The notes under the pieces: generated by a model | Database searches by the model: none | Told to the model about the DNA's origin: nothing | Seen by the model: the letters and a program-made list of their open reading frames with translations, nothing else | Part shown: positions 14,668 to 51,569 of the stretch, piece after piece | Numbering within the stretch: position 1 is the stretch's first letter | Layout: every line of letters starts with the position of its first letter | Assembly (NCBI GenBank): GCA_016207645.1 | Contig: JACQPH010000075.1 | Span: forward strand, 8,101-72,100 | Direction of reading: 5' to 3' | Source: Elusimicrobiota bacterium | Lineage (GTDB): Bacteria > Elusimicrobiota > Elusimicrobia > Elusimicrobiales > UBA9959 | DNA length: 64,000 nucleotides | Position numbers and translations under genes: made by a program

Positions 14668-14745
14668 GGCAAAGGATAAAGGCTTAAGGATAAAGGATAA
14701 AAAATTCCACCCTTTAGCCTTCATCCTTTAGCCTTAAGCCTTAGT
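14668..14745. repeat. heptamer-periodic hairpin (AAAGGAT/AAAGGCT arm vs CCTTTAG/CCTTAAG arm)
   Basis: 14679-14689 aaggcttaagg pairs with 14732-14742 ccttaagcctt; 14691-14698 pairs with 14723-14730; arms are tandem 7-mers; lies in the rpsQ-rplN spacer. Confidence 0.8.
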
Positions 14746-29644: not shown

Positions 29645-30981
29645 TCTTCACCCCCCAGGGCGGGCTCAGGAAAGGCCGGATAGACTGGGCTCTTTTCCTC
29701 GCCGCGCTGCTGCTGCTCGCGCTGGGTACTATCGCTATTTTCTCCTCGGTGGCCGTGCTGCCGGGCCAGGCGCGCATCGTCAGGGTGCAGCTCATCGCCA
29801 TCCCGCTGGCCCTTATCGCCTTCGGCGCGGCCTGGAGCCTCAACTACCAGGTCTACCAGGACCAGTGGAAGTTCGTCTACGGAGCGCTGCTGGTCTTCCT
29901 CGCCGGGGTGCTGTTCCTCGGCGTGGTGGACAAGGGGGCCCGCTCCTGGTACAGGCTGCCGTATTTCTCCGTGCAGCCCTCCGAGTTCGCGCGGGTGGGG
30001 CTCATCCTGGTGCTGGCTAATTTCCTGGACAAGCGCATCGGCAAGATCAAGGAGCTGCAGACGGTGCTCGGCGCTTTCGCGCTAGCCGTGCCGGTCTTCC
30101 TGCTGCTGATAAAACAGCCGGACTTTTCCGCCATCCTGCTCACTTTCCCGGTTGTCCTCATCATGCTCTTCGCCTCCGGCGCCAGCCTGTTCCACCTGTT
30201 CATCATCCTCGGCTACGCCTTCATCTCCGCGCTCTTCCCCATCCTCTGGAGCATCATCACCCTCACCCCGGAGCTGCTGGACAATACGCTGGTGAGCTAC
30301 TTCTTCCACCTCTCCGATTCCTGGCTCAGCGCCTCCACTTTCATGGCTTTCGTGGTCTTCGGCTCCTGGCTGCTGTGGCGGCTTTCCGTGCGGCTTTACG
30401 CCAACGTCTCCGGCGTCTATTTCGCCGGGGCCGCGCTGGTGCTGATGCTCGGCTTCTTCTCCGGCATACTGGTGAAGAACCAGATGAAGGAATACCAGCA
30501 GAAGCGGCTGGAGGTCTTCCTCTCCCCGGAGACCGACCCGCGCGGGGCCGGCTACAATCTGCTGCAGGCGCGCATAGCGATAGGGTCCGGCGGCATACTG
30601 GGCCGCGGCATCTTCTCGGGCACGCAGTCGCGCCTGGGTTTCGTGCCGGAGCGGCACACGGACTTCATCCTGGCGGTGGTGGGCGAGGAGATGGGCTTCT
30701 GGGGCATGCTGCTGGTGACCGGTCTTTACGCGCTGCTGATGCGCAGGATAATGCAGGGGGCGCGCCTGGCGCGCGACCGCTTCGGCTACCTGGTCAACTG
30801 CGGCATCTTCGGCATGTTCCTGGTCTACTTCTGCATTAATTTCGGCATGCTGCTGGGGCTCTCTCCGGTCGCCGGGGTGCCGCTGCCGCTGGTTTCCTAC
30901 GGCGGCTCCAACCTGGTGGCTACGCTGATGGCGCTGGGGATAGCGGAGTCGGTCTACGCGAGAAGATATGCTTTGGTATAG
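29641..30981 (+). CDS. rodA: rod shape-determining SEDS protein RodA (GTG start)
   Basis: Polytopic, ...PLVSYGGSN motif near C-terminus. Confidence 0.92.
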   Translation: MIFTPQGGLRKGRIDWALFLAALLLLALGTIAIFSSVAVLPGQARIVRVQLIAIPLALIAFGAAWSLNYQVYQDQWKFVYGALLVFLAGVLFLGVVDKGARSWYRLPYFSVQPSEFARVGLILVLANFLDKRIGKIKELQTVLGAFALAVPVFLLLIKQPDFSAILLTFPVVLIMLFASGASLFHLFIILGYAFISALFPILWSIITLTPELLDNTLVSYFFHLSDSWLSASTFMAFVVFGSWLLWRLSVRLYANVSGVYFAGAALVLMLGFFSGILVKNQMKEYQQKRLEVFLSPETDPRGAGYNLLQARIAIGSGGILGRGIFSGTQSRLGFVPERHTDFILAVVGEEMGFWGMLLVTGLYALLMRRIMQGARLARDRFGYLVNCGIFGMFLVYFCINFGMLLGLSPVAGVPLPLVSYGGSNLVATLMALGIAESVYARRYALV

Positions 30982-30993
30982 TGTTGCGCGCTC

Positions 30994-31107
30994 GGGGGCG
31001 GCCGGAGAGGCCCTGCGCGCCCGGGCCGAGGAAACCCTTGCGTCGGTTTCCCCCCGAAGCGGGGCCCCCCTTCCGCAAGGGCGCGCAGGGCCTCTCCGGC
31101 CGCCCCC
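30994..31107. repeat. MITE/REP-like long palindromic element, copy 1
   Basis: Perfect 27-nt inverted repeat 30994-31020 / 31081-31107 around a conserved core gaggaaacccttgcgtcggtttccccccgaagcggggccccccttccgcaaggg. Confidence 0.85.
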
Positions 31108-31136
31108 TCCGGTCGCTTAAGCGTAATGGCTTTATT

Positions 31137-31814
31137 ATGAACGAAGTCCCCAAGTCCAGGATACGCCTGAAGTTCGCGCGGCTCGAAGCCGCGAAGGACC
31201 TCAGCCACCTGGAGCAGATAAAGGTCCTGCGCGCCAGGGCCGCGGCCTGCGGCCTGAAATTCGCCCCGGCGAAAACCGGCGGCCAGGCCGTGCCCCGTAT
31301 GGCCTTCGGGCCCGCGGTCTCGGTGGGGCACGAGAGCCTGTGCGAATACGCGGACCTCTACCTGGAGGAGTTCGTCAGGGAGGAAGCCGCGGCGGAGAAG
31401 CTCCGGCCGCTGGACGACGGGTCTTTCCGCCTGGTCTCGGCGCGGCGCATCCCGGTGTTCTTCCCGTCGATCGAGGCGGCGGTGAACCCGGCGGAATATT
31501 TCCTGGAGGCCGATTTCCCCGGCGGCTTCTCGCAGGCCGCGGTGGATTCCTTCCTGGCGCTGAAGAACCTGGCCTATGAGAAGGTGAAGCCCTCCGGGGA
31601 GAGGAAGGTCCTGGACGCGCGGACGCCCGTGCTGGCGGCCTCCTTCGACAGGGAGTCCTCGCTGCTGAAGGTCACGCTGAAGCTGGAGCCCGGCAGGAGC
31701 GTGAAGCCGGAGATAGTCGCGGAGCTCATGTGCGGGGGCAGGCCCGCTTTCAGGCGCATAGTGCGCAAGGAACTTTACTGGTTCAATTCGGGCGGGAAGC
31801 TGGAAGTATTTTAG
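31137..31814 (+). CDS. DUF2344 (TIGR03936-like) radical-SAM-associated protein
   Basis: RIRLKFARLEAAKDLSHLE pattern and usual position just upstream of rng; start moved to the Met downstream of the repeat element. Confidence 0.6.
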   Translation: MNEVPKSRIRLKFARLEAAKDLSHLEQIKVLRARAAACGLKFAPAKTGGQAVPRMAFGPAVSVGHESLCEYADLYLEEFVREEAAAEKLRPLDDGSFRLVSARRIPVFFPSIEAAVNPAEYFLEADFPGGFSQAAVDSFLALKNLAYEKVKPSGERKVLDARTPVLAASFDRESSLLKVTLKLEPGRSVKPEIVAELMCGGRPAFRRIVRKELYWFNSGGKLEVF

Positions 31815-31836
31815 CCGACGGTTTTAAGGAGAGTTT

Positions 31837-44656: not shown

Positions 44657-44808
44657 GTTACTGCCCGGGTTCGGTGGTGGCCGGGGTTTTGCCCCGCGCA
44701 CCCGGAAGAGGAAACCCTTGCGTGGTTTCCCCCCGAAGCGGGGCCCCCCATCCGCAAGGGTGCGCGAAACAAAACCCCGTCCGCCCCCTCCAGCACCTGA
44801 GCAGTTAC
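44657..44808. repeat. MITE/REP-like long palindromic element, copy 2
   Basis: Termini gttactgc / gcagttac; same core as copies 1 and 3; arms fold into a long imperfect hairpin. Confidence 0.85.
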
Positions 44809-46882: not shown

Positions 46883-47564
46883 AAAAATACTGCTAGTGGA
46901 CGACGACAAGCTGGTGCTCAACTCCACCAGGCGCTACCTGGAGGAGCGCGGCTTCAGCGTGGCCGCCGCCGACAACGGCGCCGAGGCGGTGGCGCTGGCG
47001 CGGGAGTCGAAGCCGGACCTCCTGATCACCGACGCGCAGATGAAGGGGCTGGACGGCTTCGCGCTCTGCCGGGCGATAAAGGAGACGGAGGGGTTCGCGG
47101 GCATCCCGGTGATAATAATTTCCGGCGCCAAGATCAGCGAGGAGGATATCCTGGCGGGCTATAACAGGGGCGCGGACGATTACATTCTCAAGCCTTTCTC
47201 CTTCCCGGTGCTGCTGGCCAAGCTGAAGGCGGTGATGAAGCGCTACGAGGGAGTGGCGGAGAAGACGGAGAAGATAAAGAAGCTCGGCATGGTGATAGAC
47301 CCCTCCGGCCGGACGGTGACGATAAAGAACGCGGTCATCAACCTGACCCGCAAGGAATTCGACCTGCTGATGGCGCTGATCACGGAAGAAGGCCGCCTGC
47401 TGGCCATCCCGCATTTGCTGGAGACGGTCTGGGGCTACGACCCGGCCAGCTACAACGACCCGCATACGGTGGGCGTGCACGTTTCCTCCCTGCGCAAGAA
47501 GCTGGGCCCGGAGATCGGCGCGCATATCACCAGCGTGACCGGCCACGGGTATAAGTTCGAATAA
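46875..47564 (+). CDS. OmpR-family response regulator (REC plus winged-helix)
   Basis: KILLVDDDK...ITDAQM receiver; C-terminal LTRKEFDLLMAL...GHGYKF; 8-nt overlap with the upstream gene. Confidence 0.9.
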   Translation: MFKKILLVDDDKLVLNSTRRYLEERGFSVAAADNGAEAVALARESKPDLLITDAQMKGLDGFALCRAIKETEGFAGIPVIIISGAKISEEDILAGYNRGADDYILKPFSFPVLLAKLKAVMKRYEGVAEKTEKIKKLGMVIDPSGRTVTIKNAVINLTRKEFDLLMALITEEGRLLAIPHLLETVWGYDPASYNDPHTVGVHVSSLRKKLGPEIGAHITSVTGHGYKFE

Positions 47565-47612
47565 ATCACACACAAGCAGAAGGGTCCGGCAGCCTCGCCG
47601 CCCTACACGCAA

Positions 47613-47783
47613 TGTAACTACTCTGCTCCCCCATCGGGTCCGGGTTGGCCGGTGTTTTGCCCCGCGAACCCCGGAAGAGGGAAACCCTTGCGTCGGTTTC
47701 CCCCCGAAGCGGGGCCCCCCTTCCGCAAGGGGTTCGCGAAACAAAACCCCGTCCAACCCTCCAGTTGCACCTGAGCAGTTACA
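47613..47783. repeat. MITE/REP-like long palindromic element, copy 3
   Basis: Termini tgtaact / agttaca; core identical to copy 1 except flanks; arms homologous to copy 2. Confidence 0.85.
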
Positions 47784-47872
47784 GCACAGCGCAGATTTGA
47801 CCGAAATTTGATTATTTTTTGCTCTTTACCGTAATTCCCTCTGATAGAGTATTAGCGTGGAGAGGAGGGGTT

Positions 47873-51421: not shown

Positions 51422-51569
51422 ATGCCGGGTGCTTACCGCGCCCGTTCAGTAATGATATAATATAAAATTATATAAAGCACTTTAACGGCGGCCGCCCTGC
51501 TAGCATAGCTCTTATGGCGGCACAAGAAAGCGGCGAAGCGGCACTGGCATAGCTTCGGGGCTTATTTAA

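Follow-up and report, generated by a model that had tools for sequence, protein, structure and literature searches.

What three long and similar palindromes might be doing in a stretch of Elusimicrobiota DNA is the question raised by this locus. The stretch as a whole, 64,000 nucleotides in length and here called the window, is C49:8101-72100 of a MAG of 2.8 Mb (167 contigs, 81% complete, 62% G+C). An initial annotation, made from the letters of the window alone, described these palindromes as a three-copy family, found just downstream of plus-strand genes and with stems that vary in a paired manner, and offered as readings a terminator or stabiliser, a protein-binding site, or instead a non-autonomous transposon. 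The three elements very probably are members of a single large family of mobile, non-coding repeats, which is built from two separable modules, that is, an IS66-type ‘shell’ and a hairpin ‘payload’. Apart from one feature that calls for explanation, the family is a familiar sort of repeat DNA, and it is not a gene-specific control element.

The coordinates first assigned to the three copies were correct, and all are found on the plus strand (Table 1). They share a core, 26 nt of which, GGTTTCCCCCCGAAGCGGGGCCCCCC, recur exactly at 31045, 44724 and 47695, with none of 100 shuffles of the window giving a match. Core motifs of the hairpin family are GGAAACC..GGTTTCC, CCCCGCC/GGCGGGG and AAACCCTTGCG. 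Each copy is one long hairpin (z = -7.0, -5.1 and -5.7 for copies 1, 2 and 3, respectively), of a stability that is unmatched by any shuffle. Outside of the core the stems differ between copies in the paired way that had been described, i.e., CCCTGCGCGCCC/GGGCGCGCAGGG, CCCCGCGCACCC/GGGTGCGCG and CGCGAACCCC/GGGGTTCGCG, and the purine-rich bulge of the left arm is seen in all three. Copies 2 and 3 have in common the termini GT(A/T)ACT...AGTTAC, as we read them. Copy 2 is without the CGCTATA subterminal segment and follows directly on the stop codon of a small ORF that is conserved. The 29-bp stem of copy 1 has a sequence which is found nowhere else in the genome, and its core is that of the MITEs.

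Table 1. Positions of the three window copies and their parts, of a second dispersed module, and of the full-length IS66 elements (window coordinates unless otherwise indicated).
Feature	Position	Strand	Description
Copy 1, inserted block, rodA to next gene	30980..31128	+	bare hairpin module, without IS66 termini
Copy 1, hairpin	30994..31107	+	perfect 29-bp stem, GGGGGCGGCCGGAGAGGCCCTGCGCGCCC and complement, around conserved core
Copy 1, conserved core	31028..31081	+	P2 GAAACC/GGTTTC; P3 apical CCCCG/CGGGG; 3' single strand CCCCCCTTCCGCAA
Copy 1, possible degenerate direct repeat	30970..30979 and 31129-31138	+	left GCTTTGGTAT, right GCTTTATTAT; 8/10 identical
Copy 2, 152-bp MITE	44657..44808	+	left terminal repeat degenerate, GTTACTGCCCGGGT; right exact (44795-44808)
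Copy 3, complete 169-bp MITE	47614..47782	+	IS66-type shell plus hairpin payload
Copy 3, left terminal inverted repeat	47614..47627	+	GTAACTACTCTGCT; 2 mismatches versus consensus GTAACTRCTCAGGT
Copy 3, right terminal inverted repeat	47769..47782	+	ACCTGAGCAGTTAC; exact
Second dispersed module, 45-47 nt	51489-51557		GCCGTCTGAKGRGCATAGCYCTTGATACGGCACTRGCATAGCYTYG; about 47 BLAST hits
IS66 element of G354 (same family), L201			2,436 bp; ends GTAACTACTCAGA / GTAACTGCCCAGGTCCCTAT; DruA-domain ORF; zf-IS66 + DDE_Tnp_IS66
IS66 element of G365 (congener), L200			2,634 bp; perfect 20-bp repeats GTAAATATTCAGTAAACCCG; TnpC (LZ_Tnp_IS66 + DDE_Tnp_IS66); DruA-domain ORF
IS66 element of G372, L287	G372:C81:1370-4499		3,130 bp; exact terminal repeats; perfect 8-bp duplication AATTAATG; DruA-domain ORF, TnpC, 186-aa ORF

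The elements, at 150-170 bp, are non-coding, as the ORFs that run across them are solely spurious, antisense ones. Two minus-strand open frames, at 30957-31823 (289 aa) and 46896-47825 (310 aa), cross elements in this manner and could be miscalled as genes. The repeat encodes the peptide LAEGGPRFGGKPTQGFP in both, as the initial annotation had described.

The count of three, by contrast, describes the window rather than the family. Across the MAG as a whole the core is matched 34 times with at most three mismatches, versus not at all for a reversed control, and a looser core pattern is matched 119 times (62 forward, 57 reverse). BLAST using six family members finds 223 loci, adding up to 23.8 kb or 0.85% of the assembly. 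Fully 115 of the 334 contig ends fall inside a piece of the family, i.e., about one in three contig breaks of this MAG is associated with a single repeat family. For the assembly and annotation of Elusimicrobia genomes the family consequently should be masked, particularly as it also yields spurious antisense ORFs with a common peptide. Location downstream of plus-strand genes holds within the window but not genome-wide, where the four possible arrangements relative to flanking genes are represented 10, 9, 8 and 6 times, that is, without bias. Integron attC sites were rejected upon considering orientation and arrangement, with copies dispersed over contigs instead of in arrays, and found in either orientation in each of the four gene contexts.

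Mobility is indicated first of all by the ends. A 14-bp terminal inverted repeat, consensus GTAACTRCTCAGGT, is matched exactly at 50 sites of the MAG, versus none for the reversed control, and is present as the termini of copies 2 and 3 but is absent from copy 1. Pairing forward with reverse ends that are no more than 450 bp apart defines elements of 39 to 278 bp. Twenty of these terminal-repeat-bounded elements (39-233 bp) have 8-bp flanking repeats with zero or one mismatch, the chance of which is 3.8e-4 per element, and examples of these target-site duplications are TTTTGAAG, GATGGACA, GTAATATC and GAATAATC. Interiors occur as subfamilies, namely a core hairpin with either a GAAG or a GCCAGGC apical loop, a 232-278-bp type, and an 86-bp C-rich type. 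Derivatives of 39-91 bp, products of internal deletion, still possess target-site duplications, and transposition machinery thus requires the ends only. What terminal-repeat-bounded copies display is the signature of DDE-type transposition, with IS66-type ends and duplications of 8 bp.

At the window copies themselves a clean target-site duplication is seen in none of the three. No duplication is recognisable at copies 2 and 3, for which later rearrangement is a plausible reason, and the direct repeat flanking copy 1 (Table 1) is a weak match, expected by chance at about 4e-3 with offsets allowed. A composite transposon, consisting of copies 2 and 3 along with the intervening 2.8 kb, was considered and rejected, as the outer flanks differ (GCGCTTAA versus AGCACAGC). 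A pair of terminal repeats 2.8 kb apart on contig C29 encloses a PAS sensor kinase and is a chance match. At the start of contig C140 there is an odd terminal-repeat end, unique in the genome and cut by the contig start, with no sign there of an IS.

Relatives supply the corresponding empty sites. For copy 1, the joined flanks align contiguously in 39 of 40 congeners; rodA of these relatives ends in TGA and lies 0-9 nt before, or overlaps, the ATG of the next gene, versus a spacing of about 150 nt in the window. The TAG stop codon of the window's rodA (30979-30981) is itself supplied by the copy 1 insert. Copy 2 is absent in at least three relatives (G020, G006, G019), in which 8 nt are found instead and the site is contiguous. 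Copy 3 is absent from the same spacer in at least seven (G036, G030, G026, G027, G020, G015, G005). With all three sites empty in related species, all three copies are insertions. The proposed checks for duplications and empty sites thus both came out in favor of transposition, and non-autonomous transposon proves to be the apt description of copies 2 and 3, i.e., given their terminal repeats, the 8-bp duplications of sister copies, the empty sites, and the IS66 ends. The marks by which a MITE is recognised are all seen within the family: a short, non-coding, multi-copy element with terminal inverted repeats, 8-bp duplications, empty sites, and ends that are shared with an IS.

The IS66 family is defined in ISfinder by ends that begin with GTAA, by 8-bp direct repeats, and by a DDE transposase, TnpC. 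The MITE ends start with GTAA and the duplication is 8 bp, which we take together to point to IS66. A search for a cognate transposase was successful outside of the source MAG but not within it. The MAG, at 81% completeness, has no match to an IS66 transposase, whether using Pfam DDE_Tnp_IS66 or tblastn, and DDE_Tnp_IS66 likewise was found in none of the 40 congeners first sampled, including the MITE-bearing G026 and G036. Multi-copy IS elements are commonly missing from genome bins. Across the phylum the domain is present in 23 of 401 genomes, including that of one congener (G365), and IS66 elements with these ends occur both in other genomes (Table 1) and in metagenomes. Metagenome relatives of the G354 transposase are 42-81% identical and are located mostly on contigs of 2-3.5 kb; about 50 of 80 contigs with such relatives carry GTAACTRCTCAGG at zero or one mismatch.

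The right end of the IS overlaps the stop codon of tnpC, and its sequence, GTAACTACTCAGGTCGCTAT, is the same as the first 20 nt of the MITE, with divergence beyond that point, and the other end of the MITE has about 16 nt in common with the IS left end. Because the right end of the IS is the start of the MITE, the window plus strand of the MITE is antisense with respect to the parent IS. The shell, that is, consists of the 14-bp repeats along with 2-6 subterminal bases, and these are the ends of an IS66-family IS of 2.4-3.1 kb, which encodes a DruA-domain ORF as well as a TnpC-type DDE transposase. Whatever is found between IS66 ends would then be moved in trans by the IS66 transposase, with duplication of 8 bp of target. 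The transposase so acting probably either was left unbinned with the source genome or has been lost from it.

These results point to a subgroup of IS66 having a DruA-domain gene. In elements L200, L201, L208 (from a metagenome) and L287, an ORF of about 290-310 aa with this domain (PF14236, Druantia protein DruA) adjoins TnpC, and TnpC of end-sharing IS66 elements also has DUF6444. The other ORFs scanned in full-length IS66 relatives match no Pfam family, classical TnpA and TnpB thus not being seen, and full-text search found no literature on IS66 together with DUF4338. About 30-55 nt inside of one IS end of L200, at 2630-2660, the sequence GTCCAGTCGGGGCGGGGGTTTTC resembles the left extension plus outer stem that are seen in many of the bare hairpins (CCCAGTCGGGGGCC..GGGGTTTTG). 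That likeness could be a trace of how payload and IS became joined.

Exact terminal-repeat sites are present in 27 of the 401 phylum genomes, with blooms of 418 in the congener G365 and 231 in G384, a member of another genus. In both of these genomes an identical IS66 shell surrounds unrelated palindromic payloads, again with 8-bp duplications. Those payloads, as seen at G365:C7:12533-12648, G365:C7:14944-15061 and G365:C9:9226-9322 (L288-L290) as well as on G384:C1 (L291, L292), are palindromes of either CAGAATT- or GGTTCAA-type heptamer repeats. The window as well contains a heptamer-repeat hairpin, at 14668-14745, around which there are no IS66 ends. IS66 termini with heptamer payloads may account for some heptamer-repeat hairpins.

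The payload has a distribution of its own. It is an interior of about 125 nt, in which a long stem without fixed sequence is combined with two small hairpins and with a C-rich single strand that is conserved. By BLAST the canonical element is found in 31 of 36 congeners and in none of 24 genomes of other genera of the order. Most of the congener matches span positions 28-148 only, that is, the interior without the termini, and copies taken from more than 25 species agree in being interiors without these termini. Several copies in relatives retain degenerate remnants of the terminal repeats, and an old copy at an orthologous site is common to G024 (L056) and G027 (L039). A covariance model built on 48 sequences gives full-length matches in all 21 congeners sampled and weaker ones in further genera, families and classes (E 1e-8 to 1e-14), for a total of 40 of 401 phylum genomes and 16 of 122 genera; further copies, for which such a model had been suggested as a check, do therefore exist. 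The features that persist in distant copies are P2 (GGRAACC...GGTTYCC), P3, and the 3' strand CCYCCCUUCCGCWA, on stems that are wholly different. The exact core is found also in Elusimicrobia MAGs such as GWA2_61_42 and GWC2_64_44, and in no IMG/VR viral contig.

The payload is an older module than are the IS66-type ends. Its architecture may be described as a long closing stem, a variable 5' spacer, P2 (GRAACC/GGTTYC), P3 (CCCCGCC/GGCGGGG, with a variable loop), and a single-stranded CCCCCYUUCCGCWA. It exists also free of the shell, in almost all species of the genus and, with weaker matches, in other parts of the phylum, copy 1 being one such bare copy. Bare copies may be old MITEs, the termini of which have decayed, or instead may have been moved by another route. 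Two points were missed by the initial annotation here: that copy 1 is a bare interior module without IS66 termini, and that termini and interior differ in taxonomic range.

One such other route would have the bare hairpins, copy 1 included, be REP/REPIN-like and moved as single-stranded DNA by a Y1 (HUH) transposase of the RAYT type, independently of IS66. The hairpin architecture and the strand asymmetry of mismatches, as considered below, are consistent with this, as is the presence of Y1_Tnp genes (220-370 aa) in 35 of 41 congeners, with four in the MAG. Nevertheless, a Y1 domain is missing from five repeat-rich genomes (G003, G021, G025, G032, G034; completeness 90-98%) and is present in each of the 11 genomes in which BLAST finds the repeat rarely or not at all, and the element flanks none of the four Y1 genes of the MAG. 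Copy 1 furthermore has a possible direct repeat of 8-10 bp. Y1 transposition is not known to make such repeats. A RAYT-linked repeat was rejected on the basis of the phyletic pattern and the Y1 flanks, and we consider Y1-mediated movement of the bare copies to be very improbable.

The stem is where the payload becomes more difficult to account for. In MAFFT alignment A2, also of 48 sequences, 23 of the 29 pairs of the long stem change on both sides, with a covariation score of 0.236 versus 0.077 and none of 500 shuffles scoring as high, though these are non-independent events, as are the mismatches counted below, given that copies share ancestry. The covariation proposed from three sequences thus is upheld. 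Paired cells make up 88.5% of the total, versus 79% upon shuffling and at most 54% with the partner slid. P2 displays a single A-U to G-C switch, in 15 sequences and with no intermediates. An alternative, long-hairpin pairing, TTGCG/CGCAA, was rejected, being without covariation, disrupted in 18 of the 48 sequences, and lost in distant members.

Mismatches are strand-asymmetric. One-sided changes (G.U) are nearly absent on the window strand, mismatches there instead being A.C or C.A. Two partly overlapping sets give 74 A.C versus 8 G.T and 57 versus 16, with 44 of the 74 A.C cells of the first set coming from stem columns 19-21, where CCC faces a variable A/G triplet. That one block runs AAA, AAG, GAA, GAG, GGG opposite a fixed CCC. 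Copies are found in both orientations relative to genes, so the asymmetry is intrinsic to the element. An A.C or C.A on the window strand is a G.U on the complementary strand, which indicates a single-stranded form of the latter. The mismatch types consequently are suggestive, and suggestive only, of folding of the complementary strand, the one that serves as sense in the parent IS, whether as RNA or as single-stranded DNA. Pairing within the stem then would be kept since that strand, when single-stranded, must fold.

Is the hairpin then mainly a functional, structured RNA, i.e., a cis-acting terminator or mRNA stabiliser, a small RNA, or a ribozyme, with transposition secondary? The strength of the stem covariation, the unpaired nucleotides that are conserved across genera, the P2 switch without intermediates, and mismatches of the kind expected were G.U tolerated on one strand all speak in its favor. 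A role in cis, though, fits poorly with orientations that show no bias relative to genes, with a T-run following none of the three window copies, and with sites empty in relatives, the neighboring genes of which thus work without the element. None of 18 terminator-like sites lies at the three copies, and intrinsic termination, along with the terminator-or-stabiliser option of the initial annotation, accordingly was set aside. Furthermore, relative to the genes upstream of the window copies the wobble-tolerant strand is the antisense one, and single distant copies have 30-bp stems consisting of Watson-Crick pairs only. Nor does the element belong to a known RNA family, with solely tRNAs passing the gathering threshold of Rfam 15 and nothing meaningful matching even at permissive E-values, up to 10. 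A primarily RNA-based role therefore seems unlikely, and a mobile repeat with a structured interior is the reading that we retain.

A different possibility is that the stems covary without selection. Quasi-palindromes, that is, would be corrected by template switching in the course of replication, a mechanism that reportedly is established in E. coli (Ripley; Lovett), and the structure as such would have no function. Nearly all of the changes in fact exchange one Watson-Crick pair for a different one, one-sided changes being very few, and single copies exist that have perfect stems of 29-31 bp of unique sequence. What such correction leaves unexplained are the conserved, asymmetric core and the persisting bulge of 14-15 nt, the excess of A.C over G.T, and an architecture that is conserved across 16 genera. 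Selection as the means by which the stem is kept up is favored by that core and by the asymmetry of the mismatches, while the purely Watson-Crick stems of single copies favor a DNA-level process. Correction acting alone is, in our estimation, rather unlikely.

If instead the folded strand is what is selected, then the payload might be a functional, strand-specific three-way junction, either of RNA or of single-stranded DNA acting with TnpC or the DruA-domain protein, or might be a new small ribozyme or guide, which spreads within IS66 shells. This we view as improbable. Were it true, then this would be a structured-RNA passenger, the evolution of which has been coupled throughout a phylum to that of a DDE transposon.

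Returning to the family as mobile repeats of two modules, the comparison with known bacterial MITEs, i.e., Correia/NEMIS of Neisseria, RUP of Streptococcus pneumoniae, and MITEAba12 of Acinetobacter (PMC6382973), is a close one in most respects. These too are small, non-coding, intergenic, of high copy number, and accompanied by deletion derivatives, with terminal repeats identical to those of an autonomous IS and with a duplication of fixed length. The Elusimicrobia interior differs from theirs in being not an IS leftover but rather a separate, conserved, structured module with a range that is wider than that of the termini; in addition, the same Elusimicrobia termini hold unrelated palindromic payloads in other genomes. 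With the IS66 family there are in common the GTAA ends, the 8-bp duplication, and the zf-IS66 and DDE_Tnp_IS66 domains of full-length relatives, but those relatives are without an ORF that matches TnpA or TnpB, instead having a DruA-domain (PF14236) ORF beside TnpC, and the window elements encode nothing. REP/BIME/REPIN and ERIC sequences of Proteobacteria similarly are intergenic, hairpin-forming, abundant and lineage-restricted, with complementary stems and mosaics with other repeats. The Elusimicrobia element, unlike these, is longer, has a three-way core, shows 8-bp duplications when bounded by terminal repeats, and has no association that we found with Y1/RAYT.

As a kind of element, then, a MITE or REP-like repeat is known, and the combination of a shell with a conserved payload is a variant. 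New here are the IS66 shell, the duplications, the empty sites, the two-layer distribution, the test between two core folds, and the strand asymmetry; full-text searches found no literature on Elusimicrobia MITEs. Two layers that usually are confounded in MITEs can be separated in this case, with IS66 ends blooming in few lineages, where a genome has 50 to 418 exact sites, versus a much older payload, the stem of which stays complementary as its sequence drifts freely. The family thereby offers a natural system for asking why the interiors of MITEs so often are palindromic, i.e., due to selection on a folded strand versus replication-driven palindrome correction.

Copies of the hairpin also associate with other small repeats. 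In G033 (L042, about 1300-1470; G033:C30) an unrelated long palindromic repeat (GGCGGAGACCGTGGGGATGGGTCCGGCAAAAGC ... GGGCCCGTCCCCACGGTAGGCCGCC) lies about 40 nt after the hairpin, and this second palindrome recurs downstream of several hairpin copies of that genome, giving rise to a BIME-like mosaic. Hairpin loops of L139, L140, L175 and L179 (GWC2_64_44), for which the matches extend over about 210 nt, have a further 80-90 nt inserted. Given such loop insertions, nesting of small elements within the hairpin family would appear to be common.

A second dispersed module, GCCGTCTGAKGRGCATAGCYCTTGATACGGCACTRGCATAGCYTYG, is found within the window as well (Table 1). It has no Rfam match and consists of two GCATAGC boxes along with an inner stem that covaries (GGGC/GCCC, GAGC/GCTC, GCGC/GCGC, GGCC/GGCC). 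In the source genome, G000, it is nested in MITEs on contigs C5, C11, C24, C71, C86, C105, C125, C144, C148 and C150, entering the MITE left arm at two different places, both of which are occupied on C86. Free-standing copies are seen on contigs C7, C23, C37, C53, C63, C76, C91 and C101, and in free-standing copies the 5' flank and the 3' end often match over 3-5 nt (TTG, TTCG, ATG). Some copies of this module are located exactly at start codons, and that of the window lies just upstream of glmM.
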